From: Psammoneis japonica
Lineage: Eukaryota
Direction of reading: 5' to 3'
Assembly (NCBI GenBank): GCA_008632985.1
Contig: QPGO01000119.1
Location: forward strand, 1 to 64,000
DNA: 64,000 nt
Each line of letters begins with the position of its first letter. Within the stretch, counting starts at the first letter, position 1. A program made the translations under genes and the position numbers. Positions 14,101-61,664 of this stretch are shown here, in pieces. Below the pieces are notes generated by a model. That model was not told the DNA's origin. It saw only the letters and a list, made by a program, of their open reading frames with translations, and searched no databases.

Positions 14101-14155
14101 TATCAATCTGTTGAATTGACTTGCTGTCGCTGCCCGCCCGAGAGAAACGGATCAT
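11144..14155 (-). CDS. TRP-like / ion-transport-domain membrane protein with C-terminal coiled coil, multi-exon
   Basis: Consecutive minus-strand ORFs with TM helices, a pore-like FGDMFY...YRMFVGDF segment and S6/TRP-like VVLLNMLIAIVTTSYE; GT-AG introns (e.g. near 12445-12522). Confidence 0.7.
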
Positions 14156-14649
14156 GACTAACGACTAAGACGATGATAGAGATGATTCACACAATAGAGA
14201 GAGCGTGTTGTTCGCCGCTTCAAGAACAGAAATCGCGTGTAAAAGCCCTAGGTTCCAAGAGGCAGGCGAGGTGCGCGGTCCGCCGTCGTCGTTCGTCGTG
14301 TGGCGCAAAAAACAAATTGATGACTTTGGGAGTCTGTCCGTGCTGGGTATCATTCATGGTGCGAGGTGGTGGTACAAGTACTGTTTTGGCTACCCGCGCT
14401 TTTCGGAGCAAGCTGGAAGCCCAATGCTCATGGACCTTCGTTTCTACTTTTGCAGTTGCTGACACTTTCACGTTTGATGCTTGTTTCATTTTGAATACCG
14501 ATGGATTCATCATTTGTTCTCGGCTTTGGTACTTGAGATGCTGAGGCCATTATTCTATAAATTAGAGTGGTACGAGTACCGATACATAGCCTTTTGTACA
14601 TCTGCCAATGACGGCGTCTAACTTGTACTATAGTTCTCATATTTTCTCA

Positions 14650-17574: not shown

Positions 17575-17847
17575 GGTGGAAGGACTGGCGCATCGTTGCA
17601 AAATGCCTTCATCCCATGCATCATCTCTTGATCCGTCCCATGCACTTCCTTCCTCACACTGTTCGAAAGCGACAACCACGTGGTGGGAAAGAAAAACGCC
17701 ACCCACCCATGATGATGACGTCACGAAATGTCTTTGCCCGCCCGCCGACCGCGCCGACCGGCACCGCAGCGTCTCGGCCGCCGGCCCGCGAACTGCAAAG
17801 GGATGATCTATCTTGCAGAGAAGTGCGTTCCTTGCCATGGACAACTA

Positions 17848-18549
17848 ACTCTCCGACCACCAGAACCTCAAGTTGCTCATGCTGGTTCACATGAAGTCCA
17901 TTCTTGTGCACTGCAACTCCCCAAAGGACCAAAACTTCAGCTCAGCAAAGAGCCCCAGAGCTTCTGCAAAGAACTGCTGAAAAATGCTTGTTCTCTGCCC
18001 TTGTTCTCCAAAGCTGGAGTGCGGCAAAGGGCCCTCTTTCTTCTTGCACTTTTTTGCCCCCCTGGAACAAGCCAGAGTTGGGAGCAATGATTGCAGTGCC
18101 AGAAATGTTGCATCTCAAGAAGAAAATGATGCTGGCTGCCCCGCTGAGACCCTCGGCTGTTGAAAAAATGTGTGTGCACATGCAGCCCAGAGCAGCTGAG
18201 ATCTTTGAAAACACACAAGCATCAAACATTGCTCAGCAGGCACATGATGTTCAAGCATTGCAGTTGAGCCCATGACCGCCAGCCACACCAAAATTTCCAG
18301 CGCCGGCAGCCAGCTTTTTTGATCGCCTCTGGACAGCTTCCACTCCCAAAGCATCTTGTGCAGCAGAAATGTTCGCACAGGTGAGAGAATCAGTCAGAGT
18401 CAACTGAGGATGCAAGAAGATGCCATTCACCTTTCCACCACTGGGAATCACCACCTTGGAAGGCAATGTCTCGAAACAGCTGCTCACTCCATCGCGCGCC
18501 CAGCCACGCCGAGCGAACACTTTCTGTGCGAAACATTCCGTTGAATTCG
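17848..18549. other. ~700-bp TpA-free intergenic block (probable decayed repeat)
   Basis: No TA dinucleotide found by eye between 17848 and 18549; rich in TG/CA; no recognisable product. Confidence 0.65.
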
Positions 18550-18740
18550 TAAATCCCGGTATGAAAATTTTTAAATATTGTATTCTGAAATATTTGAAGG
18601 GCGAAGAATGAAGATCGCAAGATCGATCGTGTGAATGAAGAAGAAGCCACTCGTTTATGAATATCATCAATGGTATTGGTGTTGCCGTCATCATCGCATC
18701 TCACAACTCAAACATAAGAAGCAACAGTTCAGGGCCAACC

Positions 18741-24050: not shown

Positions 24051-24239
24051 TCCTTAATCAAAGGGATCTGTCGCTGCTGGTGGATGTTGAATGTGGCTTG
24101 TGAAATTTGTAAATGGCGAAAGCGATGTTAGTTGTTTGTGTGCGGCGCGCGGTTGGTCTTTTGCGTCGAACGGGATTGATTGTTCGTTGGCTCGCTGTGC
24201 TGCATAAGCTGAGAAATGTTAAGTACTTAAATGAATGAT

Positions 24240-30200: not shown

Positions 30201-32320
30201 TCACTGCAAGTGCACAGACTTGCCAAATGACATTGACAAAGCTGCCATCAGGTGTTGTGGGAAAGAGTTTTCACCAAGCACAAAAAGAAGGAGCATGGCC
30301 CATGGTGAGCTGTGTGTTCTCAGCACAGCAATGTTGTTTGCATCATGGAGCTCAGCTGCACCTTTGGTCTTGTCATGCCTTGCTTTGACCCAGTCCAATG
30401 CAACAAAGGAGTTGGCTTTCTGCCCAAGATTTGGTTGCCTCTGGCTGATTTTGAGAAAAAGTGTTGCACACATGAAACTGATGATGTTTGTTGGCACCAC
30501 GTGGGCATTCATGGTGAAGAGATTGCTTTTGTTGATGTGGGCGGGATCTCTGGAAGAACCTGAAGATGTGGAAGACAACACTGTGGAAGATCCATTTGAT
30601 GCTTGCATGAAAGAGAGTGCACATGATCACTAAAATTTTTACAACAACCCAGGAAAAAATCATTGTTTGCAATTGAGTGCAGCAGCATGGTGCCAGAGCA
30701 GTCAGATGCATGTTGTGTGGCAGAGCTGCAGCTGCAGCACAGTGTCACTCCATTTCAAGACTGCACTCAAAGAGGTTGCATCACAACTGTTGATTTGAAA
30801 AACTGGTGGTGGATTGTCCACAACACTGGTGCACAGGACATCATGTGCCTCGCTCAGTCTTTCTCACAGCCAGATGCCCCCCCCTCCCCCGGGGCATGGA
30901 CTGTGCCCGGTGCATTGTCAAATGCCTGCTCCAACTGGAAGATCCCCTGAAGGAGTGGAATTTTGTCCACTGTGTGTGGCTCAGGTCCAGGCTCCACCTG
31001 ATCTTTTACAGCACATTGTCACAGCTGTGCCGTGTGTGTCTCATGCTGCTGTTGCAGAGACTCATTGGAGCAGCCATGGGCAGGTGCTGTGCAGCTCAAC
31101 AGGAGATGACCAAGCAGGGGGAGAGAGAGATGAAGAAAGTGCACATGCCCCAAGAAACATGCCAAAAATGAACAACAAAGTGCAGTGCGACATTGAGTCT
31201 TGATGTCCTGTTTTGTCCTTTTCAGCCCACACTGGGTGCTGCATTTCAACAAGTGCTCTGAGCTTTCATGTGGATGCGCGGGAGTTGCTGTGATCTCAAC
31301 AGCATCCCATGGTGATGCAGCAGCAAGCATCTTCCTGTGTCATTCATTTGGAGACAACAGCCCACTTTGTCTTGCATTTTTTGTTGTCTCCCCTGCAGCA
31401 CTGGCATTTGCACATCTTGAGTGGAGTGCAAAGCTTCTCCAGTGCTGTTGGGTCATGTGATTGCAAGTGACAAACATCACCCAGCAAGCAAGTTGAGGCA
31501 ACAATGACTTGTTGGCAGCTCAAGAATTTCTCCTTTTGAGTCAGTGTCAAAACTGCTTTCACTTGCACAGAGCCAAGTGCTCTGAATGTTCTTGTGAACA
31601 ACCCCATCTTGGGAGGCAGCTGGAACAATTTGGAGCAACATCTTGGACCCAGCTCCTGTCAACAAATTGACTGCAGTGACTTGCAAGAGTTCACTCAAGC
31701 TGAGGCTACAGTTTTGAAGTGCAAGTTTTTGCAGCTGGCTGCAAGTTGCTTTTTTGCAGCCAGCAAGATGAAATTCCTTGAGTTGCTGCAAAACTGTCTC
31801 TGTCCAATTTTGGGGGACAACTGCTTGGCAAGGGAGGAGGGAAAGCAATCATGTGGAGCAAATGCCCAGCTCTTTTTTTTTTTCAAGTCTCTGGAGCTGG
31901 CTGCCCCAGCACACATTTTCACAGAGGACCCGCAATCAAAACAGGTGCAGCTTTCCATGCGCTCAAATTGACAAGCTGGCACAACAAGCCAATTTTGTGC
32001 AAAAGCTCAACCAAAGCAGGTCATCATTGCAAACATGTTTTTTGGCATTGGTGCAATTGTGGCGCCCCCTTGCTTCTTGCCCACAAGAAGAGAGACTCGA
32101 TTGTGGCCTGACAACCTCTGCTTTTTTTGACAACCCCACAGCTTGTGCCGCTGCAGTGAGAATCTGGATGGAACGATCGTCATCATCCATTTTTGTTGTT
32201 TGGGGAAGTGAAGAGTGTAGAAGCACCCATGGAGCCAGTGCATTTCCCGTGGGGTGTCACTTGCGGAGTTGCAAACGTGCGCCAGTGTAGTGTGTTCCCT
32301 TTTCTTGCCGTTTGCGAGCA
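24240..32320. other. ~8-kb TpA- and CpG-depleted block of decayed sequence
   Basis: Roughly 25 TA dinucleotides by eye in ~8 kb, versus dozens per kb in flanking genes. Dense Cys/His-rich spurious ORFs in all frames. Internal ~90-bp duplication (~28500-28590 vs ~28812-28900). Confidence 0.75.
27290..28402 (+). pseudogene. Decayed ELWxxDGT-like beta-propeller repeat protein
   Basis: About seven ~45-aa repeats of the form LTPMDG(I/M)L(H/C)FxADDxxNGRELWVHDPxxxTTKMAKDI across ORFs 27196-27705 and 27614-28402; frameshifted; the expected Tyr of LYF appears as His or Cys. Confidence 0.75.
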
Positions 32321-37950: not shown

Positions 37951-39933
37951 CTACTTGGAGCAAAGCGGAAGTGCATCTTTCTTCAGTTTCTTTGTCATGG
38001 CCCGGACCCCTCTTCGCGCTCTCGACACTGCTTTCTTGAATTCCTTGTCAGTTCGTTTCTCCTTGGCCCACGTTAACCATGTGGTTTCCATTTCATCAAG
38101 AAAACTCTCTTGTAGGACTCCCTGGCCTCTCATGCGCTTGATGAAATCTCGAAGGAGATTGATGGAGCAGGTACTTGCGACCCTGCCAATCGAGGTAAAG
38201 CGAGGATCCGTCATTTGTAGTTCTACAAGATACTTTGTTGCTTCCATGAGGCGAAAGAGAGAATGGACTGCTTGTCCACGGTTCGACATGATGCGCCTTG
38301 AGAATAAAATTTTGTCGTATGCGACTTTGTTTTTTCCATCTATTGTCGTAGTATCCGGATAATACTTCCTCAGCAAATTGTCAAGGCACGACGTGTAGGC
38401 ACAGTTAACCTTGTTTAACTTGGGCGGAAACGGATTCGTCTTTGCGCTGCTATCAAACTCGAAAATTCTAGAAACATATTGGTCATCACCAGAACGCATT
38501 ATCGCGAACTTTCCACGGTATGCTTTGATTCCTCCTTCGTGATTCTTGTCCGAGTCAAAATGAACCAAGTCCGCACCCTCCTGTATCCATTTAGAACGCA
38601 CGAGCTTGAACTTTTGAGCCACATCTTTGTTTTGGCTGACCTTACTGGCGAGCAGAAGATGAATACCATCGTCAGACAAGGTGACTTCTGTACCCGAACA
38701 GTATACTGAGTCGCCACATTCGTCGAGGATCCTAAGCGAACTTGTCTCTCGCCACGAAGATGCTTTCCAATCATAGATACGAATGTACTTCGGATCACTG
38801 CGGGCAGTGGGAGGGCCAATAGCCAATCGATTTCCGTCAGCTGACATGGACAAAAGCGTTCCATTGATCTTACTTCCTCTGCGAGTCCAAGAGGACGATT
38901 TCCTCTGGCGATAAACTTCAACCATTGAATTCGCCCAGTAGTCGGGAAACGGAGTATCCAGCCTCGTACTGACAACAACAGTTTCGCCGTTGCCGGACAT
39001 GCTTACTCCTTCTTGATGACCTTGGAGAAATCCAAGAGAATGACCAATGGATCCGATTTGCTTCCACAAACTTCCACTATTGTCATATATTTTCACATCT
39101 CTACTGTTAGCTATCATGATGCGACGCCCGTTGTCGGATAAAGACACGTCGATTCCCAATTTTTCATTCATACGTGTACCATTGAAGGTCGCAAGGACAT
39201 TCCACCATTGTCCGTTCCATTCGTGGATGTTGACGTACCCAAAGTTCGAACACGCGTCAAAGCAGTTGTAGTCATCATCTCCGTCATCGTCATCAAATCG
39301 CGGGTAACGATCATCGTCCTCGCACCTGCTGCATTCACTGCTTGCAAACGCATAGCCCGCGGCGAGACGCGATCCATCCGCAGAGACAGATTTACTGCTC
39401 CCGTCGAATCTACCATGGAAACCAAATCGAGACCCCAATTCTTCCCAGAACGGCGATATGCCAGAGGTTTCATCAAGGTAAAAGACTTGTTCAACGGCTT
39501 CATATAACCTCTGGCGCGAAACAAAAAAACGCTTTCCGTCTTTTGATAGTTCGCTTCGAGACCACTCAAAATCGAACTTTAAATCATCCCCCAGCTGTTT
39601 CCACTCTGGAGGGACGCCGAGATTCCTACCACGCTGATGTGATTCTTCGAGACGTTGATCAGACGTTTTTAGCTGGCGCATCACGTTGTTGGGTCCAGCA
39701 TGATGAGCTCCTGCATATCCGATTGCAGCATCGAGCTCACCATTTACGGCCTTCCACGGTTCATTCGTAAGAGCATCGTTACTCACATTTCCGTGACTCA
39801 AACGATTAGAAGCGATAGTAATGCCAATCATCACCAGCTGCGCGATGAGCATTGACCCAAGAACAAAAGATGCCACCAACGCTACGGGCGGTTGCAAGAG
39901 TTCTTGGCGACGCTTCTTTCCGATTCCGTACAT
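37951..39933 (-). CDS. Membrane-anchored beta-propeller-like repeat protein of unknown function
   Basis: 660-aa ORF with N-terminal TM helix and repeated VS(L/M)SxDGxRLAxG and WxQxG motifs. Confidence 0.65.
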   Translation of the reverse strand: MYGIGKKRRQELLQPPVALVASFVLGSMLIAQLVMIGITIASNRLSHGNVSNDALTNEPWKAVNGELDAAIGYAGAHHAGPNNVMRQLKTSDQRLEESHQRGRNLGVPPEWKQLGDDLKFDFEWSRSELSKDGKRFFVSRQRLYEAVEQVFYLDETSGISPFWEELGSRFGFHGRFDGSSKSVSADGSRLAAGYAFASSECSRCEDDDRYPRFDDDDGDDDYNCFDACSNFGYVNIHEWNGQWWNVLATFNGTRMNEKLGIDVSLSDNGRRIMIANSRDVKIYDNSGSLWKQIGSIGHSLGFLQGHQEGVSMSGNGETVVVSTRLDTPFPDYWANSMVEVYRQRKSSSWTRRGSKINGTLLSMSADGNRLAIGPPTARSDPKYIRIYDWKASSWRETSSLRILDECGDSVYCSGTEVTLSDDGIHLLLASKVSQNKDVAQKFKLVRSKWIQEGADLVHFDSDKNHEGGIKAYRGKFAIMRSGDDQYVSRIFEFDSSAKTNPFPPKLNKVNCAYTSCLDNLLRKYYPDTTTIDGKNKVAYDKILFSRRIMSNRGQAVHSLFRLMEATKYLVELQMTDPRFTSIGRVASTCSINLLRDFIKRMRGQGVLQESFLDEMETTWLTWAKEKRTDKEFKKAVSRARRGVRAMTKKLKKDALPLCSK

Positions 39934-40249
39934 TACGACACGTTTCTTGGTGCTATCAGCGCCGCTTTTTGGTCAACAATGCTAGAGAAGTGTTGCGGAC
40001 AGCAGGCGTAGAAGGTTATTGACATCAAACATCAAGTCATCAGTCATCAAGTCACCCCACATGATGATCTCGAACGAGAAGGGTTCTCATTTTTTTGAAA
40101 CAATTAAGCGGACGTTGAACAGACAGACAAGTACCGGTCGACGCGACGCGACGAGCAGGTAGTCAATGTTACAGTCATCTATCTCTACATAACATAGTCT
40201 CTACTCTACTAGAGTAGAGCTCTAGCTAGAGTAGCTACTCTCTACTCTA

Positions 40250-41430: not shown

Positions 41431-44096
41431 CTAGCAGTACTCAGCATGATCCAAGACCTCATCCAGTTTTTTCAGTGATTGGTGCACACGTTCCCAGCCT
41501 GCCTGTTCTATGCATAACCCAGAAAGGATTCGTTCGTTAAGGTGTGACATTTCCTGAGTGTGACTCATGACTCGCATAGCCAACCGGTCCGGAGGTGCTT
41601 GATTCTCACGAATAAACAGAACAGACCTGGAATGGTACAAGCGCTCCTTTGGGGGAGGTTTTTCTTCCATGGTGGATTCTTCAAAGGTTACCGATGGCCG
41701 TCTTTCGGGAGTCCCCGACGGCGGATCATCATCTTCCTCGCCAACAGAGAGAGCATCGTGCGCGGCGACATCCACCTTGGTTTCTTTTCCTTCATTAGCC
41801 TTCTCGTAGTGGTGCTGGAAGTGTGTAGAAGCATCGCTGGCTCTCGCGACAGAATCCGAAATACCTGAGACCAAAACGGAAGTAGTACCGGGGCCGCGTT
41901 GGTCCTTTGATCTGGCAGACTCGCGATGATCTCGTATCATCTTGCTCACCACGACCTGTTCACCATTCCAAATCAGCTTCAGTTTGGGATACGTCAATCG
42001 GGTGCTGATGCTCGTGGAAATAAAAGTCACAATGACCACTTTGGAAATGTACGGAATGTCAGGACTCGCCGATGGATCTTTCGAAATAACCACGACAGCG
42101 GATCCAAGGCCCGCAACAAACAGAGATGATATCAATGCAAAAGATACGGAAGCGGCTTCATTGAACATACCCGGCAAATTTCGAGACTTCTGCGCTTCAA
42201 TTAGAGCTGCAAACAATGTAATTAGAGGTACGCACGTGGTTGCCAGGAAGTAAATCTGCTCTCGGTCCGTTCCGCATTCGTAGCGTCCATCTGATTCCTG
42301 CGCATTCATGTCAACCTGGAGTTGAGGTGAAAATACGGCTAATCCCACAATCTCAAGAACAACCATAGGAAGCGTCACCAGAATGATAATGAGCCACAGT
42401 CGGCATGTAGTGAATTGTAGTCGAATGCTCTTTTGACGGTTCAAAGAGTGCTTCTCTTTCCACCTCTGCAGTGCGCGAACAAATCTTGGAGGATCTGCTG
42501 CACTTGCCGGTACTTCCTGAGGCTCTGCTTCTGTCGATAACTCGCTATTGATACCACCCATACTGCTTGAAACGCCACTTTCTCCAGCCACACTCGTGTT
42601 GCGGTTCATGAGAGCTCTCTTCCAATTCTTAAAATTCTGCTTTCTTTCACGAGAATTAGTCTTGCCAGAGTTCCAATTCATCAGTGGTGCCATTATTGCG
42701 AGTATGCGTCGTAAACGCCCAAGAACAATGGCCAACATGAGCTGAATGGGAATGGTGGTCATTGGATTCTGCAAGTAGCAGTGAGCATTGGACTTTGGGT
42801 TGTACAAGACGCTACACAGCGTTGCGAAGAATCCCGCAAACTGCAGCAAGAGTAAAAACTCGCACTGCGCCAGTTTCATGACGGAGTGCTTGCGATGACG
42901 CCATGTAGAACTCATAAAGAAGACCAACGCCAAGCCGGCTACGGCAATGATAACGTACGAAACAACCTCCATTGCCAGGCTAACTGATTGAATAGTAGGC
43001 TTTTCATAGTACGTGACAGAACGCTGGCTCAAGAGGTTGGCCACATCGAACTTGTAAGCCGCCTGCTCGTTACTGGTTGTGTTACTCAGAAAGAATTCAA
43101 AGGCTGCGAGAGGAAGATAGTTTCCTGGGACCGAGACTTGGACATCCACATCCAGATGAAACTCAAACTCCGTCTCATTCGTGATGTTCACGGGAATGAG
43201 GAAGAACTCTGAGGCAAGGTGATACAGTTGCTGTCGCTCCTCGTGCTGTTGACAATGTTGTTTCGCGGCAAAAAAGGATTAGAAAAAAAATAGTTCAATC
43301 AACAACGTCGGCCAGCTATCCACTCTCTGTGATGTACAACAATACTCACGTAATGCAAACCGTCATGATATTGAGAAAGCCCATGTTCCTGATTGTACTC
43401 TTCCCCATGATTTACGATCGTTCGCAAATACAATTTTCTTCTTTTTCTTCCATCATGACGATCTGGATGAGCACTGTGTTCTTTCATGCGGCGTTCATGT
43501 CCCCCGTCGTGATCGTCTCCATCCACATGAATATGCGATTCCAGTTCGTCGTGCCGGCCCAGAATAAACGGAGAGCACAGATTCCCATTGACAGGACAAA
43601 ACTCAATCCGAAACCCAACATCGTGCAGTCCGTCTGACGAATAGAAAAAGGAATCCTCTGGTAGCCCGTAGACTTGTCTGAGAACTTCCAAATTAACCCG
43701 GGCTACTACGTGATAGGTGTAGTACCGACCTGTCCTTAAACGATAGCTTCCACGGAATTGTTCCGGTAAGATGTCGAGAAACACAGCAGTACCGTCCCAG
43801 CAGGAACTCTGCAAGGATGTGGGGCCTGCTACAAAATTTGGCTCGAGGTCCGAGTGCCAATTGACTCCATCAAAATCACGAACGTGGTCGTCATCGTCAA
43901 CGGTGTTGTTTGTGCGATTTTGAAACAAAGGTGCCGACCAGCATATGGGATCTGTCCCGTTGACATTGTCGTATCCTGTTTCAGTGTAGACTTCTCCTGG
44001 GACTTGAGACCGGATCTCAGGCACCCACAACAGAAGCAGTAAGAGAAGCAACCGCAGCAGAAAAAGCGAAGGAACTATTTCCGGTATTGGCCTCAT
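41431..44096 (-). CDS. Class C-like (7tm_3) G-protein-coupled receptor with signal peptide
   Basis: Signal peptide in ORF 43299-44096; seven hydrophobic segments in ORF 41431-43191 with RKHSVMKLAQCEFL, LPGMFNEA and YPKL motifs typical of GABA-B-like 7tm_3 receptors. Confidence 0.75.
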
Positions 44097-44361: not shown

Positions 44362-44796
44362 TGTGCAGTGTGCCTCGCCACTGGACAACACGGCGAGACC
44401 GTGCATAAGCCTCTTGTACGTGGCAACGTAGTGTTGTTAACACGTACCTGGGAAGCACGACCACAGGAGGGCGTGGCTCTAGGTCTTAGGCAATTCCAGA
44501 AGGATGCTAAGAGAGCATCCGTGTGAAGCACACTGGCCCGTCGTCTGGCCCACCATGGCAGCATGATTCCACACGATGACATCACTCGTGCGCAGCGTGT
44601 GATGGCTTGACTCGCACGATCCACAATGCGAGCGCACGATCGATTTGATGCGATCCCAATGCGAACGAACAGGGATTTGGCAAGATTCCCCATTCACACG
44701 ATCCCATTTTCTCTGCTCCAAGCTGGCTCATGATTTTCACAACGACAAAGTTGCAACACATCTTCTTTTCAGCGCCTGGCACATGCACAGGGCACA
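44362..44796 (+). repeat. 5' LTR
   Basis: Ungapped alignment with 49152-49586; starts TGTG, ends CACA. Confidence 0.93.
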
Positions 44797-44855
44797 GTGA
44801 TGTCACTCTCGCATGTTGTGCGAGGTGACGAAATCTGTAGAAACGAAACTGCGAA

Positions 44856-46040
44856 ATGTTGGCAGGACCGACAAATCTTAAAACGACCATGAAGAAGCGG
44901 ACCGAGCCGCCGATTCCGTTCGCACGGCCGGAGAAGAAAGAGCTGCAGCAGGGCGAGTGCCAGACATTCAAGCTGCGCAACAACCCCACTGATCCGGATG
45001 GTCCAACGCACGAGATGGGCATTCCGCACCTTTCCATGGCTGCATGCGAGATGCTCCCAATCTTTCTGCGCAACGTGGGTCGCGTGCACGAAGGACAAAA
45101 CATCACGACCGGGCCAGCGAAATTTGCCCTCATGCGTGACCCACTGCAGGGTGATGCTCTGACGTCATTTGACAATGCCGTTGACAAGCAGGCATCCCAA
45201 ACCAATGCTGCGTGCGCAGCATGCGTCGCCAAGCTAAAGGAAAGCATCTTCCCACATGGGGCGGCACTGTTGCAGAAGCGTCATCTGAGGCGCTTCATGC
45301 GCAAGCCCGCAGAGGTTTCCACTCGTGACTGCGTCGCGAGGGCTGTTGAAATCAACGGCCACATCTCTCAGTTTCCACCCGTGATGGAGGACAAAGAAGC
45401 ACTGGCACTGTCACCTGATGACGAACTGTGCGACATGTTCGAGTGCGGTGTGCCGAGCGCATGGCAGAAGTTCATGACGCTACAGAATTTTGACCCGTTG
45501 GCGCATGCCATCGCCGAATTCACACAGTTCTGTGAGTGCACCGAGCAGGTCGAGCTTGCCGAAGGTAACCGCGACCAACGTGCTGGGGTCCCACGCAAGC
45601 GGGGACGTAGAACGGACAATTCTGAGTCGTTGATCACGACCCAACCGAACACCCACGTGAAACGTGTCAAGACTGGATGTTCCAACAACGGAGGCAGCAA
45701 GCCCAACACAAAACCTCGGAATGAGGAAGATGTTGACACTCTCATCGGATCGAAGGTCGAGGAGTTCTTTGCCAACGCTCAGAAAAAGCGTAAGGCACGC
45801 AAGGAGGAGCTCAATCACTTCCGCGACCTCAACTTAAGTGATTCCGAAGACTCGGACACTTGCCGACACGATGCAGGTAGTTTTAATACATTAGATGAAT
45901 GTATAAATGAACAACTGAATTACCATCGTACACGTGTTGTAGGCCAATCCCGCAAACGAGTTAAAAAGACTCATCTTACTCCAATCTTGTTTATAGCTAT
46001 GAATGCTAAACATGGCAAGGGGCAAGACTCAAACCATTAA
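44856..46040 (+). pseudogene. gag: gag-like ORF of the Gypsy element
   Basis: ORF directly after the 5' LTR with QKRHLRRFMRKP and retrotransposon gag-like composition; Tyr absent until ~45920. Confidence 0.7.
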
Positions 46041-49000
46041 GGCACTATTAGATAGTGGCGCCAGCAGCACTCTACTCGACAGTCGATACTGTAAACGTCT
46101 GCGAAGCCATTCAACGGCTGAGACAAACTGGACTACGGTAGCAGGCTCGTTCAGTACGTCTAACGACTGTACCGTTAAATTTTGGTTACCAGAATTATAC
46201 GAAACTCTTAGAACTTAAATATACCGTCCACGTACACAACGGAAAGTTGGGCAAGTACGATATGATTATTGGACGTGACATTCTGGAGACACAAGGCATT
46301 GATATTGTCTTCTCTAAACAGATGATAGAGTGGCCATTAGTCAATGGAGAAGTACCAATGAGGCACGTAGATGCTACGGTAGAAACCTCCTTCTATCTTC
46401 AAGATCCAGAAGCTTTAGCTTCGGAAACCGACCGGATTTCGCGTATTTTAGACGCTAAGTACGCGCCGGCCTGCCTCAAGGACATAACGCGAGGGGCAAT
46501 AAATTTTCTATAGTTCAACAAAACGACCTTTTGGCACTATTGAAACGCCATGAGTCCTTATTTGATGGGACATTAGGAGAATGGAAGGGAGAACCCTACC
46601 ATATCCAACTCAAGGAGGGTGTAGAACCATACCACGCTCGTCCGTATAAAGTACCTCGTGCGTACGAAGCTACGCTACGTAAAGAAGTAGAACGCCTAGT
46701 ACGTATCGGTGTTCTCAAACGCGTTAACCGATCCCAATGGGCAGCTCCATCATTTATCATACCGAAGAAAGATTTAACGGTACGCTTTATTAATGATTTC
46801 AGAGAGCTGAATAAACGGATCAAGCGATTGCCTTATCCGATTCCTCATGTCCAAGATATGCTGCTCAAGCTCGAAGGCTTTATGTGGGCTACATCGCTGG
46901 ATTTAAACATCGGCCATTGTCACATCCGATTGGACACTGATGGCAAGAAGCTCTGCACGCTCATCTTCCCGTGGGGCAAGTATGAGATGCAGGCATTGCC
47001 CATGGGATTGTGCAACTCGCCAGACATTTTCCAAGAACGCATGTCAGGCTCATTTGAAGATCTGTCGTTCGTTCGAACGTGCTCAGATGACCTTCTCGTT
47101 GTGACGAAAGGCACCCACGAAGATCACCTCAACAAACTTGAAGAAGTTTTGTTGAGGGTCCAGAAGGCAGGACTAAAAGTCAACGCAACTAAATCTCACT
47201 TCTGTCAAACCCAATTAGAACACTTGGGTTGTCTGGTTGACAGAGACGGGGTGCGACCAATGCCCAACAAAGTCGATGCCATTGAGCGAATCGCGATCCC
47301 AACCAACAAACGCGACCTGCGCTCATTTGTTGGCATGGTGAACTGCCACCGCGACACGTGGATTGGACATTCTGAAGTCTTGGCTCCGCCAACACGACTC
47401 ACAAGCGAGGCTGTCAAGTGGGAGTGGACATCCGTTGAAGACGAGGCATTCGAAGCCGTTGAACGGGTGACATCGGATGATATTTTGTTGTCACATCCTG
47501 ATTTTAACAAACCCTTTGAGATGCGCGCCGATGCCTCTAAATGTCAATTGGGAGCAGTTGCATCCCAAGACAATAAAACCTGTCACCTTTTGCAGCAGAA
47601 AGCTTGACAGTGCGCAATTAAATCATGCAACAACGGAGAGAGAATCACTCGCCATTGTGGAGACATTGAAAGAATTTCGAACGACTCTCCTTGGTCATCG
47701 CACAACTGCATGCACTGATCATAAAAATCTTGCGCACAAAGTGTTCAATGCCGAGCGCGTTGTGCGCTGGCGGTTGACATGCGAAGAATGCGGTCCCGAA
47801 TTACGCTGTGTCAAGGGTGCCCACAACCTGGTCGCTGACGCTCTCAGTCGCCTTCGACTGGCACCCAGCTTGCCTTCCGAGGCCAATCCGGATGCAACAG
47901 ACACTCCATTGAGTCGTCCTTTGCATGAAGCTTTTAATGCAGATGCGCAAGATGAGATGTCTCTGCCCATTGGCTTCAAGCGCATTCAAAAAGCACAACA
48001 AAAGGACAAGCGCCTGCTCTCACGAGCCAAGGACTCGTCCGACTGCTCCATTCGCGCATGTCGTGGGGGAGGGTCATCACGACAGTTAATCTGTCATAAG
48101 GACAAAATCGCAGTGCCACAGTCATTGCAGGTTCCGCCATCTGAATGGTGCCACGAGACACTGTGTCATCCATGTGAGACACGCACGGAAATGTCCATTG
48201 CCCAGCACTTCTGTTGGCCCAGTGTGAGGTCTACGGTGCATTCTACGTGTGTTGAGTGCGATCGATGCCAGAAGACAAAACGCCGAATGCAGCATTGTGG
48301 GAAGCCACCAGAAAAGGTCGCAGAGACAATTCCATGGGAGACTCCATGCATGGATGTGACAGGGCCACATAAAATTCAAAGACGCGGAAAGGACACTTTG
48401 CAATTGTGGGCAGTCACAATGATTGACCCAGCAACCGGGTGGTTCGAGATTAAAGAAGTGTCTGCGAAACGCGCAGACGTCGCAGCAAACGTCGTGGAAC
48501 AAACGTGGCTATGCAGACATCCGTGGCCAACCCAGGTGGTTTGTGACCGTGGGACAGAATTTATGGCAGAATTCAGCCAGATGATTAAAAATGACTGTGG
48601 GATTTTGAAGAAACCCACAAGCAAACGGAATCCACAGGCGAGTGCCACAGTGGAGCGTGTGCACCAGACACTTGGTGACATGGTGCGTTCCTTTTCAGCA
48701 CAGGATGTGGAGCTGGACGAAGATGACCCATGGAGTGGCATCCTCTCCGCAGCAGCCTTTGCCACCAGAGCTGCGGCACATGCGACCACGCGTGCAAGTC
48801 CCATGCAATTGGTCTTCGGACACGATGCGGTTTTGTCTGTTGCTCATCGTGCCAAGTGGAAGCACATGGAAACCAGAAAGCAGAAGCTTGTCCACTTAAA
48901 CAACAAGCGTGAAAATCAGAAACGCAAGGAGTGTCAACATGCCGCAGGGCAATTGGCACTCATCAAACAGGAACAATCCTCTAAATGCGGTTCTGACAGT

Positions 49001-49115
49001 TGTGCAGGACCCGCCAGAGTTGTCCGTGTGCATGACAACGGCACGTTGCGCATCCAGAATGGAGTGCTGACAGATGCGTGCAATCTACGGCAGATTGTGC
49101 CCCATCACCAGCAAG
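46003..49115 (+). pseudogene. pol: pol (protease, RT, RNase H, integrase), frameshifted and hypermutated
   Basis: LLDSGAS protease; SQWAAPSFIIPKK, DFRELNK, LPMGL and CSDD (YxDD position) in RT; ADAS and TDHKNL in RNase H; HxxxxH...CxxC, DRGTEF and ERVH in integrase. Confidence 0.9.
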
Positions 49116-49151
49116 ACATCCTGTCACTTGACGGCCCTGATCATGGGGGAG

Positions 49152-49586
49152 TGTGCAGCATGCCTTGCCACTGGACAACATGGCGAGACTGTGCATGAGC
49201 CTCTTGTGCGTGGCAACGCAGCATTGTCAACACGCACCTGGGAAGCACGACCACAGGAGGGCGTGGCTCCAGGTCTCAGGCAATTCCAGAAGGATGCTGA
49301 GAGAGCATCCGTGTGAAGCACACTGGCCCATCGTCTGGCCCACGATGGCAGCGTGATTCCACACGATGACATCACTCGTGCGCAGCGTGTGATGGCTTGA
49401 TTCGCATGATCCATGATGCGAACGCACGATCGATTTGATGCGATCCCAATGTGAACGAATGGGGATTTGGCAAGATTCCCTGTTCACATGATCCCATTTT
49501 CTCTGGTCTAAACTAGCTCACAATTTTCACAACGACAAAGTCGCAACACATCTTCTTTTCAATGCCTGGCACATGCATGGGGCACA
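49152..49586 (+). repeat. 3' LTR
   Basis: Follows the PPT at 49145-49151; aligns to 44362-44796. Confidence 0.93.
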
Positions 49587-49739
49587 TGTGTCACCTTGAT
49601 CAAATTCATTTTTCCATCTCACAAAATCGATCTTTGAGATCACCTCTGCAGCTGCAGCCATGACTTCTCCATGGAGAACACACACATCAACAACTGTTGC
49701 ATTGAAATCTTGGGCAACCACTCTCTTTCCTGTGGAGAC

Positions 49740-52040
49740 TCTGGCAAAGCCCTGGTGCATCTTCTTGTTCCAGTTCCCCCATCATGGCCCAAACGCTTCT
49801 TCGAGCTCTTGACACAGCTTTCTTGAATTCATTGTCAGCTCTTTTCTCTTTGACCCATTCCAGCTGTGTGGTTTCAATTTCATCAAGAAAAATCTCGTCA
49901 AGGGATGATTTGCCAATCAGGTGCTTGATGAGATCTCGCAGGAGGCAGATTGATGGGGTGGAGCAGGTGGTGTGTTTGCAACCCTGCCAACTGCGGCAAA
50001 GCTGGCACTGGTCTTTTGCAGCTCTGCAAAATGCTTTGTTGCTTCCATGAGGTGAAAGAGAGAATGGACTGCTCATCCATGGTTTGACATGATGTGCCCA
50101 GAGAACAAAAAATCTTGTCGCGCGCAACTTTGTTTTCTGCATCCAGTGTCAGAGCATCTGCAAAATGCTTCATCAGCAAGTTGCCAAGGCATGACATGTG
50201 TGCACAATTGACCTTGTGCAACTTGGACAGAAACAGGTTTGTCTCAGTGCTGCTGTCAAACTCAAAAATTCTAAAAACATGGGGACCATCACCAGAGGAG
50301 TGCGTGCTTGCAAATTTTTCATCATGGCAGGCTTTGATTTCTCCAGTTCAGTTCATCAAGTTGGCACCCTCCTGCACCCAATTAGAACCCACAAGCTTGA
50401 GCTTCTGAGCAACACATTTCAGTTTGCCAACCCTGCTTGCAAGCAAAAGATGAGTGCCGTCGTCAGACATGGTGACTTGCACATCACAGTGACCCCAGTC
50501 TTTTCATTTGTCGAGAATCCAAAGTGAGCTTGTCTCTTGCCACGATGATGCTTTCCAATCATAGATGCAAATGTGCTTCAGATCACTGCAGGTGGTGGGA
50601 GGGCCAACAGCCAACCAATTTCCATGAACTGACATGGCCAACAGTGTGCTCCGTTGATCTTGCAGCCTCTGCAAGTCCAAGACAACTGCTTCCTCTCTGC
50701 ATGGCGACAAACTTCAACCTTGAAATTCTCCCAGCATTGAGATGACAGAGCATGCAGTCTTTTGCTGAGAGCAACAGCTTTGCTGTTTCCAGACATGCTT
50801 CTTCTGTTTGCACACCTGCTTGCACAGAACATGAGAGAACAACCAACAGATCTGGTTGGCTCCAACAAACTTCCAATGTTGTCACACATTTTTGCATGCT
50901 TGTTGGCATCTGTCAGTGTGATCCGATGGCCATTGTGTGACAAGGACACTTGGCTTCCCATTTCTTTCCCTGCATGAGGACCAACAAAGTCCCAGCGACA
51001 TTTCGCTTTTGTTCACTCTGCTCTGACTCCACTCATGAATTTTGTCCAGCCCAAACAAGTCAAGACATTGGTGGGCACACACGCAGTCATTGTGCTGAAA
51101 CTTGCAAAACCCATCTTTGCAAATGGCATCGTCATCATCATCATCATCATCATCAAAATCACAGTCATTGTTGTCTCACATGCTGCAGTCACTGTTGGTC
51201 TTTGGATGGCCCATGGCAAGATGCAATGCCCATCTGGTGCTGCCCACACGGGTTCATGCCTCTCATTGCAAGCATCGCACATGCCACCAAATTGCCCCCC
51301 CATTCCTTTCCAGAGTGGCTTTTTGCCAGATCTCTCATGGAGTTCAAAAGTGCATTTGCTGGTCTTGCATTCGTTGAGGCCACTGTCAGCATGGCAGGCA
51401 GTCCTGACGGAACCAAAAATGCTTCCCGTCTTTTGAGACATGGCTCAACTGCAAGACTTTTTCATGTGCGCACTCTAAAGTTTCCCCAAGCTGTTTCCAC
51501 TCGCAGGGGATGCCCAGATTGCCACCATGACGCAGGTGCTCTTGGGCACAATGACCAGATGTTTTCAGCCTCTGCATGTTGTTTCGTCTCATGTCATCAC
51601 AGGCTGCTCCTGGATGCCTGATGGAAGCTTTAAATCCACCAGCCATCGCCGACCTTTGATTGTTCATTCTTCGTCCGAGCTCCTTTGGAACCATTGCCCG
51701 TCTTTGAATGAGACCAAGAGACAGTGATGGCAACCATTCCCAACTGTGCTGGTGACATCGAACCCAGGACAATGGAAGCCAAAGCTGCTGGTCATGCTGC
51801 TTGTCGTGGACGCTTGTTTCCGACTCCGGGCATGCTCCACTTCGATTTGCTTTCTTGGTGCCGTCAGGCATTTGCTGAAGTGAAACAGTGGCACAGGATT
51901 CACCAATGAGAGAGGAGTGTTATGATGACAGGTCTGGTTGACAACAAGAGCCAAGAGAAGCTCCGTTTCCTTGTGTTTGATCTCTGATCTCGAAAATGAT
52001 GAACACGGGAGGGTTCTCATTTTTTGAAACATTTAGCGCG
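49740..52040 (-). pseudogene. Hypermutated paralog of the 37951-39933 gene, including its upstream flank
   Basis: Collinear similarity, e.g. 50012-50098 vs 38211-38297, and GGGTTCTCATTTTTTGAAAC at ~52011 vs ~40081. Reading frame broken; about 6 TA in 2.3 kb. Confidence 0.88.
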
Positions 52041-52245
52041 GGATAAAGAGTATTGGGATCTGAATACAATTGATACAAAAAAGAGTAATGACGTCATTCG
52101 CATCCACGCGGAAAAAATGGATGAATGAAACTTGCCACCGACTGACCCGACTGATGACTCACCGCCATTGCTCATCATCGTGTTGTGCGTTGTCTCGTTG
52201 CTCGTTGGAAACCGCAACTCATTACACTAACAACAGTAAAGAACC

Positions 52246-53009
52246 ATGTTTCGTTTCGGAGCTATTGGAGTATGCGCCATTATCATGGCTCTTTCTTGCG
52301 CTGACGCCTACATGGTGGGAACGTCCGTGTCGGCCTTTGGAGGTCGCGTTCTCTTGACGCCTCCTCCTGCTGTCTCCAAGAAAAATTTGCTTGAAATGAA
52401 AAAGGGAAAACCAAACATGCCTCCTCAAATGCGGGGTAACTACAAACGTCAGAAGGAAATGGCACAAATGCGTGAACAAATGATTGCGGCTGGCAAACCT
52501 GGCGCAGATGGATTGCCGATCTTCAATCTGTTCGTAAGAACGCCGGTGGGAAATGTAAGTTGAAGTGGGTGTACGATCCTTCAGCGTGTTGCTCGTGTAT
52601 TAGAGTGAGGCACAGAGTCGGAATCGCGTTGTTCCTTTTGATCAGCTCACATTTTTCTTTGCTCACTTTAATTTTTTTCCTTTTACAGGTGTGGTACCCA
52701 TGCGGCAGTTTCAAGGGCGATGACAAGAGTGCTGCATTGGCAAAGAACTATGCAGACGATGGCATGCTGAGTGGTATTTCGAAAAAGCAACTCGACAGTG
52801 GAGTGGAAGGATCCTTGTACCGAGACTTGGCCCAACTAAAGGAAAGTATTTTCCGCTCGTATCCGCAGCTTCGAAAGCAAAAGGACAAGCTCGAGTTTGG
52901 ATACAAGCTCGGATTCGAGGGCTTGTCAGAAGAACAAGAAAAGATGCAAATCATTGAACCCAAGGAGCAGAAGGGCCTTTTCGATGGAGTCAAGAGCATG
53001 TTCAGCTAA
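52246..53009 (+). CDS. HHL1-like plastid-targeted protein; exons 52246-52554 and 52689-53009
   Basis: Bipartite-like leader (SCADA-Y); FNLFVRT...WYPCGSFKG...LYRD...YPQLRK...EFGYKL resembles the HHL1 family; in-frame GT-AG intron. Confidence 0.7.
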
Positions 53010-53176
53010 GCAACGATTTGAAATGGTGCGTCGGATGACTTGATATATGATATTTTATAACTGTTTAACCTTAGTTATCGCTACTTCTGAACCGCGTTTC
53101 CTTTAACTTGTCTGGTCGAGTAGTCAAAACAAACGTGTCATATTGTTTGCAACTTCTCAATCAAAACACTATCTAC

Positions 53177-55059
53177 TCAAACGCCTTCGACAAGCAGATC
53201 TGGCATATCCTCCAAGACGGACGTTTCCATGTCTAGTTCAGACTCAAAGTCCGACACGTCACCAAGAGAAAAGGATCCGGCGCTTTCTTGCTTTCCAACG
53301 CGACCACCCGTTGGATGCACTTCATGAAAGGGCGGGAAGGGATCGTAGTTGTCCGCCATGTCTGGAAACACCGACGACGACCAGGTTTCACCATACTGCA
53401 CGGCCTGACCATGCTTGGAGATGCTCGGATAGCTTTCCGTCGTATCCATGTCGAAATTCACATCTACAAAGTCACAGGGTGATGTTGTTGTATCCATCAT
53501 GACATTGTCATCCATGACAACGTCATCACGCATGTCGTCGTCGGCGGCGGCGACAACGTTTCCTCCTGCGGCCCACGCATGAGCAAAGTCAAGCAACGGG
53601 TCTTCACCCATCTCTTCTGGAACGCAATAGGCATTGTCGGGATTATGAAACGTTTCACTGACTTGTTGGATCTTGCGGTCCCAATCCAAATCCACCACAT
53701 TGTCATCCTGTCGTGTGTCCGATCCGTAATGATGCGCTTGTGGCGTAGGTGGTCCGAAAGGAAGCGACGGCTGTTGCGGCTGTCCACAATCAGTATACAA
53801 ATGGTACCCCGCAACAGGAGGAGGTGGCGGCGGAGGAGAGCCCATGACTTGACCATGATGCATCGTTGAAGGATCCGGTCTGTTGTAGTGGCCAGGGGTC
53901 GGCGCCGGAGAGTAAACGTGATGATTGGGTGGCGATGCTCCAATAGCATCCGCGTAGGGTCCTGGAGAGTACGCTCCATTTGGTACAACAACTCCTCCTG
54001 GATTGGGCGTCACGACATGACCACCAAACACAAGCTGCTGCTGCTGTTGTTGCTTTTCTTTTTGTTCCCGATCATTGGCCATGAACTTGTAATCCAAAAA
54101 GTGATGGGGTTTCTTCTTCTTTTCAACCGATGCCTTGAGACTACGCTTGCGCATATTGGTGGTCCAATTCACAACCTGTCCGTGGTTGAGACCCGTCTGC
54201 TTGCACAACTCATCAATTTGTGTCGAGGTTGGAAAGGGATGTTGCTGTGTATCGGTTGTTTTTGAAACGAAACGAGTGTGTGTGTGTGAGCGACAATTTG
54301 GATAAAGGACGAGTTTCAAACACAGACGAGGCGTTCAATACAATACACACGTACCACATGATCCAGCATCCAATTCATCAAGATATCCGTCTGCCACTTG
54401 GAATACTTGTTGCAGATTGCATCACCCGACGTGGACGAACGAGGCTTGGGAGGAGGTGGACTCGCCACGACTGCAGCAACCGAAACAATTCCATTATTCG
54501 CTTCTTGTTGTTGTTGATAGGCAGCATGCTCTTTGGCTTGTGCAATATACTTGGTACAACGTTCCATTTCTTGTTGCAAAATATGAAAATTCTCATTCAA
54601 GAGTGAATCGGTCATGTGGTACGTTCCTCGTTGAATGACGGGTGGATTCTTGTAGTTGCGTTGCAAGTGTTGTTGTTGCATACGCGATACGGCATTGATG
54701 ACTTGTTGCGGATCCATTTCACTCGCGGTGCGCTTGGGTTCGTCATTGTTGTTATTGTTATGTAAATTCGATGCGGCCTCTCGGATTTGCTTGACACGTA
54801 CCGCCAAAGCCAAGAGACTTGGAAAGTCTTCATGACATAGCATGCGATCGACATCATCCAAAAGAACCGGAGCTTGTTCTTGCTTTTTCAAATCGATGTT
54901 GTTTCCTCGAGACAATGCCGTACCTTGCAATGGCGGACCGCTAGTAGCGGATCTCATGGGCGATGCTACGGTTTCCTCCTTTAACGACGGAGTACCAGGA
55001 GAAGTAGTGGCCGCCATGGGTGGAGGCGTTGTCGGCTTTTGCTTGTTCAAGTCCGCCAT
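53177..55059 (-). CDS. TALE-class (KN-type) homeodomain transcription factor; intron 54245-54354
   Basis: Spliced homeodomain KWQTDILMNWMLDHV/QHPFPTSTQIDELCKQTGLNHGQVVNWTTNMRKR. Confidence 0.85.
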
Positions 55060-59551: not shown

Positions 59552-59924
59552 GTTGGAAGTATCACCTGTGCACGAAATGGTTGCAAGTGTTGGTGTCGTT
59601 TGGAGAAAACGACACAAAAAAGGACAAAGTGTTTGTGTTGTTGCGTTGTTTGCCGTTTGACTTTTGTTCGAGAACACGAAAAAATATAACGGTCGTGGAG
59701 TCGTGATGCGCGCTCGCGTTGAATCGCGCGACTCGATTTCACAAGACATTGTGACGTCATGGGCCAACGGAAAATCCAACCAAAACCAAAGATGGACAGT
59801 ATTTATCGCAGATCAAAATCGTCCGATAATGACCAAGACATCGACACATGTCTCGGTCATTTCATTATACGAATACATCACGACCACACCATTGTTTCAC
59901 ATGGTTGGGTCGCATTTATTTTGG

Positions 59925-61664
59925 CGCCAAAGTCTTTTTTGCATGTGTGGCTGCGCGTGGTCGCCAGCAGATGAAGTGGCTGCTGGAATCTGTGTCATGT
60001 CTTTGCTGTGGACTGATGCATTTTCTCATCATGTTTTGGCAGTGTGGCAGCTCCTGCTTTTCAGCAGGGGGTGCTGGAACAACAGCAAGTTGCCAGCATG
60101 ATCTCTGGTGTGGTTGACTCTTCTTTCTTTTGTGCCTTTGCCCAGGGGGCAGGAGCCAAATTTTCAAACTCTGGATGTCATTGTTTTTGCAGATGTTTTT
60201 AGCCAATGCAGCAAAACAGCTGTGTGGTGACAAACAGCTCAACTGGAAAAGTTTGCCGCTGCATTTTTGTGGAAAGGAGCAGCAGTGCACAGCTTCTTGT
60301 GGCAAGTGTCCAAAGCCAAGGTGTGGGAGGCAAGAGCAGCCACAGCAAAAGACTGCCACTGCACATGTCTTCAAGTGCCAGCTGACAGACTTGTTGAAGG
60401 GTGCAATGCTGGGGGTGCATGTTGCTGGGGCCCAACAAGCAACTCAACAAAAAATTCGAACCAAGAGCAGCGCTTTTTGGACACGCCAGAGCTGCGGAAG
60501 CAGCAGCTTGGCAAAATTTTGGCAGGGGGGCGCTGCTGCACAAGCTTTTCAGTGCTCAAAGCAGTGCTCCTGCTGTCCCATGCTTGGCAGGCAGTGCAGC
60601 GCAATTGATCTTGGGAAGCTTGCTCTGTGGAAGCTTTTGAAGCTCTTGAGCCCCACGAAGCTCTTGAGCCAAGAAGCTGCAAATCTCGTTTCCCACAATG
60701 TGGCTTTGACTGGCTGCAACGTGGGCCAGCATGGGTGGCCAAGCCCCATTTTGATTGCTTCAAGAAGGTGCCTGCAGCCCATGAAGCCACAAGAGCTGGG
60801 TGTTGCCAAATGTGCTGCACGCGGCACTGGCATTGCTTGTTCTTGCAAAGCAGCGCCAAATCACCCAGCAGCACTTGCTTTTTCATTTCTTTTGATGCCA
60901 ACACACAAGCACAGGTGCACACTCCTGCTGTGCAGTGCATCAACACAGCAGCAGGTCAAATTGTCACACGCATGGGCAAAAAGCTGGAGGCGCCGCAAGT
61001 GGCACAACAAAGGTCAGCTTGCGCAATGGCAGCACATGATGCTTCCAGCAGATCGGAGTTGGTGGCATGCTGCACAAGAAATGCCATTGCATGGTTGTTG
61101 TGCAGTGTTGCACAGCAGATCTTGGAAACCTTTTTAGCTGTTTTCAAAGCTTTTGAGTTGGGCAGCACGGCTGAGCCAAGTTGCAAATTTTGCTGCCTGT
61201 GCAGCAGCTTTTGGTTGGTGGCAGCAGTCAGTTGGCTCTTGGCTCTGGCAAGGCCAGGTTTTTTGTTGCTCAGTTGTTTCAAGAAGGTGCACAGCTCACA
61301 AGGCTGCATGTGGCATTTTTGTTTTTTGTTGCAGAGCAAAACCTCAAATCACACAGGAGCTTGGTGCTTTTTCATTGCTTTTGACGAGGACATCAAAAAA
61401 CACACCAGCAGGTGGTGCACCCACTGTGCAGTCAGGGGCACAGCAAGGGGGGGGGGGGGGGGGGCGGAGTGGCTCAGCCTCCCCAGTCTTCATGAAAACC
61501 CACCAGCCCACGAGCCACACGAGCTCTACAAAACCTTTCACAAGGACATTGCAGCGGTCTCTCTCTCTCTTTTGCCACACTGCTGGCTGTGCTGACATGC
61601 ACGCAGCGTGTGTCACACGTGCACCTGTTTCATTGTTTTTGATGAGTGGCACTGTCAATGCATG
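59925..61664. other. ~1.7-kb TpA- and CpG-depleted block (probable decayed repeat)
   Basis: About 3 TA by eye (60200, 61135, 61527); internal similarity ~60840-60900 vs ~61328-61390; no recognisable product. Confidence 0.65.

Follow-up and report, generated by a model that had tools for sequence, protein, structure and literature searches.

Several systems are known that produce clustered or dense transitions in DNA or RNA. In repeat-induced point mutation (RIP), found in Neurospora and other fungi, C is changed to T at CpA, or at TCG in some basidiomycetes; the process creates TpA, lowers the GC content, needs a duplicated sequence and hits both copies. APOBEC enzymes edit the cDNA of retroelements, ADAR enzymes edit RNA, and polymerase eta makes A>G changes at WA (W, A or T) in antibody genes. 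Here we compare these systems with a locus of the pennate diatom Psammoneis japonica, where a gene copy lying beside a Ty3/Gypsy-type long terminal repeat (LTR) retrotransposon has lost nearly all of its TpA and most of its CpG dinucleotides, whereas the intact paralog 10 kb away has kept them. The locus is part of a window of 64,000 nucleotides (contig QPGO01000119.1, 1-64,000), which was treated as nuclear DNA. Coordinates are positions in this window (Table 1).

The first measurement of DNA hypermutation aimed only at TpA dates from 2026 and comes from a single alga, Bigelowiella natans, where the process was interpreted as a defence against viral DNA (bioRxiv 10.64898/2026.01.13.699255). 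Among 302 nuclear mutations recorded in mutation-accumulation lines, 231 lay in integrated giant-virus and virophage regions, and the regional mutation rate was raised about 1000-fold. Of these 231 mutations, 230 changed A to G or T to C, each of them at a TpA. The genome contains 124 clusters of TpA-poor, CpA+TpG-rich windows, the TpA-poor genes are enriched for reverse transcriptase and DDE endonuclease domains, and a large target is single-copy and silent. The authors proposed that an ADAT2-like enzyme deaminates adenine in DNA and thereby defends the cell against foreign DNA, and stated that ADAR typically prefers a 5' U (bioRxiv 10.64898/2026.01.13.699255). In a term search of the accessible part of this text (Mettrop et al. 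2026) the words 'CpG', 'trinucleotide', 'context' and 'stramenopile' were absent. No report of TpA to TpG/CpA conversion in diatoms was found in the literature covered, subscription journals being outside this coverage, and the B. natans preprint was the only description of the signature found there.

Local alignment of 37960-40122 with 49744-52050 gave 2370 columns, of which 1521 were identical and 270 contained gaps (72.4% identity over ungapped columns). When the intact protein was compared with the copy by tblastn, six segments were obtained that together cover residues 1-658 and are distributed over all three minus frames, indicating that the copy is a pseudogene which is full-length and carries five or more frameshifts. 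The 579 mismatched bases consisted of 310 transitions and 269 transversions. Since the transitions are accompanied by so many transversions, as well as by many indels, the pair is old and not a recent duplication. About 127 of the transitions belong to the two kinds of conversion described below (50 TA-type and 77 CG-type). The relatives of the intact protein are distant: a word-based search yielded six matches with 24-31% identity, an exhaustive search 2941 with 36% as the best, and among these 2941 library matches no outgroup was near enough to polarise nucleotide changes.

The changes between the paralogs were concentrated in two dinucleotides. Of the TA in the intact gene, 74 were aligned; only 4 of these were kept in the copy, whereas 24 had become TG and 21 CA. 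For CG the corresponding numbers were 20 kept, 38 TG and 31 CA (n=128). Thus 70/74 TA and 108/128 CG were lost, compared with 43% of the other dinucleotides (1049/1837, or 57%, kept; Fisher p ~1e-20 for TA, likewise for CG). The changes had a clear direction: TA in the intact gene corresponded to TG or CA in the copy at 45 places and the reverse was seen once (binomial p 1.3e-12), and the analogous ratio for CG was 69 to 10 (binomial p 5.5e-12). In total, the intact stretch and the copy contained 78 and 8 TA, 140 and 46 CG, 129 and 240 TG, and 167 and 254 CA, respectively. Over 49595-51921 the odds ratios were 0.03 for TA, 0.31 for CG, 1.71 for TG and 1.81 for CA, compared with 0.54 (TA) and 1.17 (CG) in the intact gene and 0.56-0.58 (TA) in other ordinary DNA of the window. 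The two strands were changed about equally (24 TA>TG and 21 TA>CA; 242 TG and 266 CA in 49595-51921). An earlier, sequence-only reading of this DNA had started from an ungapped match of 87 bp (38211-38297 with 50012-50098) and had proposed that the trend continues over about 2.3 kb. The changes in the short segment were exactly as described (75/87 identical, TA 3 versus 0, CG 4 versus 0), and the trend extended over the full alignment.

Since selection could have kept the intact gene clean, TA spanning codon boundaries was counted, where T>C is mostly silent. The intact gene had 30 such TA against 54.4 expected (0.55), within the range of seven other open reading frames (ORFs) of the window (0.44-0.74), and 53 CG spanning codon boundaries against 52.9 expected. 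The normal silent-site TA and CG content indicates that the intact gene was not a target. The earlier claim that only the copy was converted was therefore upheld, synonymous sites included.

One could assume that there is no targeting at all and that a neutral bias acting across the genome, or gene conversion biased towards GC, shows wherever selection is absent. The pseudogene is free of selection, and TA is under-represented throughout the window (0.4-0.8). However, the segment 52100-59900, which has no large ORFs, keeps TA at 0.56, an island within the Gypsy element has a TA odds ratio of 1.00, the silent sites of genes still hold TA, and the edges of the converted tracts are sharp. Moreover, the excess of W>S changes (A or T to G or C) is limited to TA, where it is 50:1; outside TA and CG contexts the paralog alignment was near-symmetric, with 92 W>S and 72 S>W changes, 13 AA>AG against 9 AG>AA, and 37 AT>GT or AT>AC against 31 in the reverse direction. 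This explanation was judged very improbable. GC-biased gene conversion was discarded as a candidate on these counts and on the symmetry of the strands, and a WA rule of the polymerase eta type was considered less likely because AA was unaffected.

The TA odds ratio of 1-kb windows was 0.4-0.8 over most of the 64,000 nucleotides and 0.01-0.10 in six tracts (5041-6803, 17502-18550, 24524-32218, 44508-45791, 46981-51921 and 59917-61527), in which TG and CA were raised to 1.5-1.9. The longest TA-free gaps measured 1605 bp, compared with a mean TA spacing of 34 bp, and the tract edges were sharp to about 100 bp. By the definition used for clusters in B. natans (at least three 1-kb windows with TpA <=0.43 and CpA+TpG >=1.52), windows 49001-52000 (TA 0.04-0.05, TG/CA 1.72-1.84) and 25001-32000 (TA 0.01-0.06, TG/CA 1.60-1.87) are both clusters. 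The tract that includes the pseudogene begins in the Gypsy element, ends about 100 bp inside the end of the paralog homology, and stops approximately 210-325 bp before the ATG of an HHL1-like gene. The loss of TA was near-complete in all six tracts while the CG odds ratio ranged from 1.03 (no loss) to 0.11 (about 90% loss); thus the TA process seems to be fast and the CG process slower. The TA process may also still be active, as TA is nearly absent from 49595-51921 even though 508 of the 2326 dinucleotides there are TG or CA, from which new TA most commonly arises by C>T.

The neighbouring element contains the Pfam families RVT_1, RT_RNaseH, Integrase_H2C2 and rve, and its LTR pair, polypurine tract and domain order (reverse transcriptase, RNase H, integrase) are those of a Ty3/Gypsy retrotransposon. 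Inspection of the termini revealed no clean target-site duplication. Among 5282 contig pieces of run X1 on the stretch, the summed depth over the element was 12000-27000, as opposed to about 60 in the flanks; this value is no measure of copy number, but it shows that the element belongs to a multi-copy family. The two LTRs differ in 42 columns. Ten are sites with TA in one LTR and TG or CA in the other, eight having TA in the 5' LTR (all in its first 146 bp) and two in the 3' LTR. Fourteen columns make up seven double sites at which one LTR reads TG and the other CA, ten are CG-type sites (CG kept in the 5' LTR at eight), and the remaining eight include two gap columns. The double sites imply a TA ancestor that was changed independently in each LTR, so the process acted in place after integration, provided that both LTRs stem from one insertion. 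The same LTR sequence was treated differently at its two locations, since the 146 bp lying beside a seven-transmembrane (7TM) receptor gene keep their TA and the counterpart in the 3' LTR is converted. A contig of run X2 reaches 44264, about 100 bp from the 5' LTR.

Comparison with other copies and relatives pointed to the direction of change in the element as well. This copy differs from the other X1 copies at 169 places, 158 of them by transitions. Among the 40 rows listed of the 169, 34 lie in the element, and these include at least ten places where other copies read TA (12-100% of depth) and this copy CA or TG, and at least five further places where others read CG and this copy TG or CA. 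Nine polymorphic places in 45596-45873 had TA in 12-82% of depth, and at 44719 TA was found in all. Eleven metagenomic relatives (45-63% protein identity) had TA odds ratios of 0.68-0.98 (eight sequences), 0.42-0.46 (two) and 0.16 (one, with TG 1.65). As the element has a TA-rich island, eight of the 11 relatives are TA-rich and other copies read TA, the TA-rich state is ancestral in this family and the TA-free state derived. The three TA-poor relatives, L011 (1-1422), L009 and L010, come from other samples and carry the signature partially (TA 0.16, 0.42 and 0.46; TG 1.33-1.65).

The sequence-only reading had attributed the targeting to local chromatin state rather than pairing, with possible spreading from the adjacent 3' LTR. 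The first part was supported, since the LTRs of one multi-copy element were converted differently depending on place: the targeting looks positional. The second part was not. In the alternative based on spreading, the Gypsy insertion nucleated silent chromatin, which extended rightwards over the gene copy with the mutator coming after it, and the loss of this copy was collateral damage. In its favour, the TA-poor tract runs unbroken from the element through the 3' LTR and a spacer into the pseudogene, the element represents a very abundant family, and more CG was lost from the 3' LTR (8/28, now TG or CA) than from the 5' LTR (2/23). However, CG density was 59 and 49 per kb in the two final kilobases of the element and 14 and 16 per kb in the two kilobases that follow, which is a step at the LTR end, 3-4 times lower outside, and not a gradient. 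Under this model the source would have decayed less than the DNA into which it spread. An unconverted island (8-12 TA per 100 bp) between two converted parts and the unconverted start of the 5' LTR both lie within the element, and the paralogs have diverged far more by transversions (269 over roughly 2100 aligned bases) than the LTRs have (2 in 445). Furthermore, similar tracts exist at 24524-32218 and 59917-61527, where none of 33 open frames of at least 110 amino acids had a credible Pfam family (DUF4336, E 7e-4, was below the cut-off). Spreading was therefore considered unlikely. The CG step and the transversion divergence make the pseudogene tract look older than, or independent of, the Gypsy insertion. 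Some other copies of the element have rearrangement joints ending at 46976-46990, which is the right edge of the island.

Pairing or repetition is also unlikely as the guide. The pseudogene was covered by two single contigs of run X1 (depth 72 and 61), the intact gene by one (depth 58) and the flanking genes similarly; by these contigs the pseudogene is single-copy at a likeness of at least 88%. It is only 72% similar to its paralog, the paralog is untouched, and the LTRs were treated differently. This agrees with the earlier claim that pairing does not direct the process. A RIP-like mechanism would have recognised the young duplication by homology and mutated one copy, the other being kept clean by selection. 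It could account for the right edge of the tract, which lies close to the end of the paralog homology, and most tracts with recognisable content are repeats. It does not agree with the silent sites of the intact gene, whose TA and CG are as in other genes, nor with the LTRs, which are equally repeated and yet were treated by position. The B. natans target is single-copy too. The polarity is also opposite: RIP converts CpA/TpG to TpA, and here TpA was converted to CpA/TpG. Reference to RIP in the earlier reading was thus misplaced, and a RIP-like origin was regarded as improbable. The locus shares with RIP the dense transitions confined to segments, the inactivation of transposons and the capacity to ruin gene copies, but TpA is destroyed, the GC content is unchanged, the target is single-copy and the paralog was spared.

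Two further explanations concern the way the sequence was produced. According to the first, double-stranded transcripts were edited by an ADAR-like activity and the changes were fixed by reverse transcription, the copy being an edited retrocopy. The 5' U preference is typical of ADAR, and the patches in the transposon resemble hyper-edited stretches. On the other hand, both strands were changed about equally in one copy, the LTR differences must postdate integration, and the paralogs share upstream non-coding sequence, including a 20-bp motif, which makes an edited retrocopy extremely improbable. The motif differs by three mismatches between the paralogs, occurs nowhere else in the window and may be a promoter element common to both; it lies just beyond the converted tract, and the homology stops about 20 bp further. 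More generally, this locus resembles the products of APOBEC, ADAR and polymerase eta in having clustered, context-specific transitions and differs from them in that both strands were changed in place and AA was spared, whereas those enzymes act before integration, on one strand, or on AA too.

According to the second, modified bases in heterochromatin, which can cause systematic miscalls, produced an artefact of assembly or base calling. The contigs of run X1 nevertheless matched the window with no difference over 49532-51117 and one over 51172-54000, although X1 may be the source of the assembly; the sole difference inside the pseudogene was a CpG transition at 51700. The copy also has indels, frameshifts and 269 transversions, and relatives from other samples carry a partial signature. 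There is very little chance that the signature is such an artefact.

Sequence context influenced which TA were changed. Among the 66 TA surviving in the tracts, 38 were YTAR (Y, pyrimidine; R, purine), compared with 319 of 1841 elsewhere (odds ratio 6.5, p 8.5e-13), and only one was RTAY, compared with 581 of 1841. The conversion events, tallied by hand from the listed events with flanks taken from the intact gene, were in agreement: a pyrimidine was found at +1 in 19 of 24 TA>TG events and a purine at -1 in 14 of 21 TA>CA events (pooled 33/45 versus 57% expected, p 0.03). The preferred target appears to be the A of 5'-T-A-Y-3' on either strand, with YTAR escaping, and this one rule accounts for the contexts of both types of event. 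In addition, A was present at +2 in 64% of the survivors, which lies beyond the T-A-Y rule.

The closest counterpart is the B. natans process. As there, TpA is hit and becomes TpG or CpA depending on the strand (45/74 here, with one reverse case), reverse-transcriptase and transposase genes are among its targets as the Gypsy element is here, and the effect is independent of copy number, the pseudogene having single-contig depths of 61-72 in one run. There are also differences. The present host is a diatom, a stramenopile, and B. natans is a chlorarachniophyte, a rhizarian. The Gypsy element is of foreign type, but the single-copy pseudogene erased here has an intact paralog that looks like a cellular gene and would belong to a host gene family, which fits poorly with foreign DNA as the sole target. 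The earlier statement that genes unrelated to transposons can be hit was supported, since such a gene copy is affected. The depletion is far deeper, with a TA odds ratio of 0.03 compared with 0.45 in the region of B. natans derived from a nucleocytoplasmic large DNA virus. Finally, the TpA loss is coupled here with CpG decay and a flanking-base rule, and this footprint was read from sequence, whereas the B. natans rates were measured.

The CG half of the pattern (CG>TG/CA 69:10, CG odds ratio 0.31 against 1.17) is as expected from the decay of methylated CpG, which does not explain the TA half. In the diatom Phaeodactylum the transposons that carry CG methylation lie in regions with H3K27me3 and H3K9me2/3 marks (PMC9998398), and tracts like those described here coincide with the transposon-rich methylated DNA of this model species. 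Methylated silent chromatin would thus be the most plausible identity of the tracts, and most likely it also serves as the guide, with edges sharp to about 100 bp.

Taken together, we think it probable that TpA hypermutation and methyl-CpG decay, both directed by position, acted on an old pseudogene and that the Gypsy element arrived later. A local duplicate of the 660-residue FG-GAP-like gene would long ago have become a pseudogene in a short domain between the 7TM receptor gene and the HHL1-like gene, and the tract would have occupied the space between these genes before the insertion. In this domain one process would have converted TpA to TpG/CpA on both strands almost completely, leaving a signature of the B. 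natans type, and the usual decay of methylated CpG would have produced TpG/CpA from CpG in the same domains. A multi-copy Gypsy element would later have inserted beside the pseudogene, where its TpA would have been converted in place with the loss of few CpG. The activity may be one restricted to certain chromatin, changing the A in T-A-Y of double-stranded DNA to a base that is read as G, for example to inosine by deamination; the candidate enzyme would be a deaminase acting on adenine in DNA, like the one suggested for B. natans. Alternatively, a mutagenic modification of the palindromic TpA could be involved. Thymine hydroxylation is known from dinoflagellate DNA and offers a possible lead for TpA modification.

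Several points weigh against this interpretation. That chromatin is the guide we infer from position. The copy number of the pseudogene was derived from contigs of a single run, X1, which is possibly the assembly's own source. The CG step could reflect differing methylation levels instead of age. The element lacks a clean target-site duplication, and recombination might have brought together LTRs of two different copies; the argument for conversion in place would then be weaker. A simple domain model does not account for the unconverted island of 1.2 kb in the middle of the element, and the tract at 17502-18550, located between apparently functional genes, fits badly with promoter-free silent DNA. 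The context rule is based on 66 survivors and 45 events. Any mechanism shared with B. natans, which belongs to a different supergroup branch, would be putative.

The same footprint is now seen in a diatom, thus in a different major lineage from that of B. natans, and with a built-in control: of two paralogs 10 kb apart one was erased and the other left untouched, which argues for position or chromatin as the guide more than for foreign origin or repetition. The T-A-Y rule is a constraint for any candidate enzyme. It is conceivable, although rather doubtful, that the silent chromatin of diatoms, like that of chlorarachniophytes, is generally subject to TpA-aimed mutagenesis of this kind (T-A-Y, faster than CpG decay, guided by chromatin position at roughly nucleosome resolution and not by foreignness or repetition). 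It would then be an old means, common to the whole stramenopile-alveolate-rhizarian assemblage, by which any silenced DNA, host pseudogenes included, is permanently erased. Tractable model species exist among the diatoms, and should the process occur generally in this group, its mechanism would become testable.

Table 1. Coordinates of the gene pair, the retrotransposon and the associated tracts in the window (TA, CG, TG and CA values are odds ratios unless given as counts).
Feature	Position	Strand	Basis or remarks
Pseudogene of the 660-aa gene, full-length, frame-shifted	49744..52050	-	DNA alignment, tblastn, composition
Intact 660-aa paralog with FG-GAP-like repeat region	37951..39933	-	ORF, weak FG-GAP_2 (PF14312) relatives
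Upstream 20-bp motif in both paralogs	52011..52030 (counterpart 40081-40100)	+	Alignment, motif search
Ty3/Gypsy-type LTR retrotransposon, reverse transcriptase - RNase H - integrase, polypurine tract before 3' LTR	44362..49594	+	Pfam, LTR pair, termini
5' LTR	44362..44806	+	First 146 bp: 8 TA kept; remainder TA-free
3' LTR, 90.6% like 5' LTR	49152..49594	+	All 8 TA of 5' LTR are CA or TG
TA-poor tract inside element	44508..45791		TA 0.11, CG kept (1.03)
Unconverted island in element	45800..46980		89 TA (1.00), CG 1.14, TG 0.90, CA 0.98
Continuous TA-poor tract: 3' half of element, 150-bp spacer and pseudogene	46981..51921		CG step at 49594/49595

The window has a GC content of about 48%, and its genes are present mostly as long uninterrupted ORFs. 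They encode HHL1-like and bZIP-PAS proteins, a fusion of ABC1 kinase and beta-lactamase, pieces of ABC transporters, a sulfotransferase and the 7TM receptor. The converted domain is flanked by the 7TM receptor gene on the left and the HHL1-like gene on the right. Contigs of run X2 jump over 43246-43349, which has CT..AC ends, and over 52555-52688, as spliced transcripts would, and thereby merge two 7TM ORFs into one gene and two HHL1-like ORFs into another. The run is recorded as 'DNA?', and parts of the stretch have no X2 cover. The segment 40336-40635 was matched by a contig of 300 bp with a depth of 154 (flanks about 60) and two differences, both TA in the window and CA in the contig; this segment looks like a low-copy repeat with the TA to CA type of change.

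A Pfam scan of 47 long open frames from the four tracts outside the element and pseudogene gave two sub-threshold listings (ArsD and DUF4336), both at chance level. The tract at 24524-32218 extends over 7.7 kb, with TA at 0.03-0.06 and uneven CG (0.11-0.53), and includes a decayed tandem repeat with a unit of about 144 bp around 27351-28113. At 59917-61527 (TA 0.03, CG 0.25, CA 2.17) there are overlapping open frames of 320 and 261 amino acids with no family match. An element of 2.1 kb at 4907-7018 is bounded by inverted repeats of 122 bp that are 82% alike; no protein family was recognised in it, and its interior (5041-6803) is TA-free with CG mostly kept (0.71).

The genes for the ABC1 kinase and the ABC transporter are divergent, and the tract at 17502-18550 occupies all of the DNA between them, coming within about 100 bp of the ABC-transporter ATG. 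The best named relatives of the ABC1 protein are diatom proteins, from Amphora coffeaeformis (62%), Corethron (55%), Asterionellopsis (54%) and Pseudo-nitzschia (50%), and the best unnamed matches reach 76-78%. Its ORF of 1062 codons is probably extended at the N-terminus, because the tract is devoid of TAA and TAG stops and the relatives span only 83-87% of it. TA-free DNA has TGA as its only stop and therefore contains long open frames whichever of the six frames is read; the stretch 46500-53000, for instance, has 30 ORFs of at least 80 amino acids. Such tracts inflate ORFs and are a trap for gene callers.

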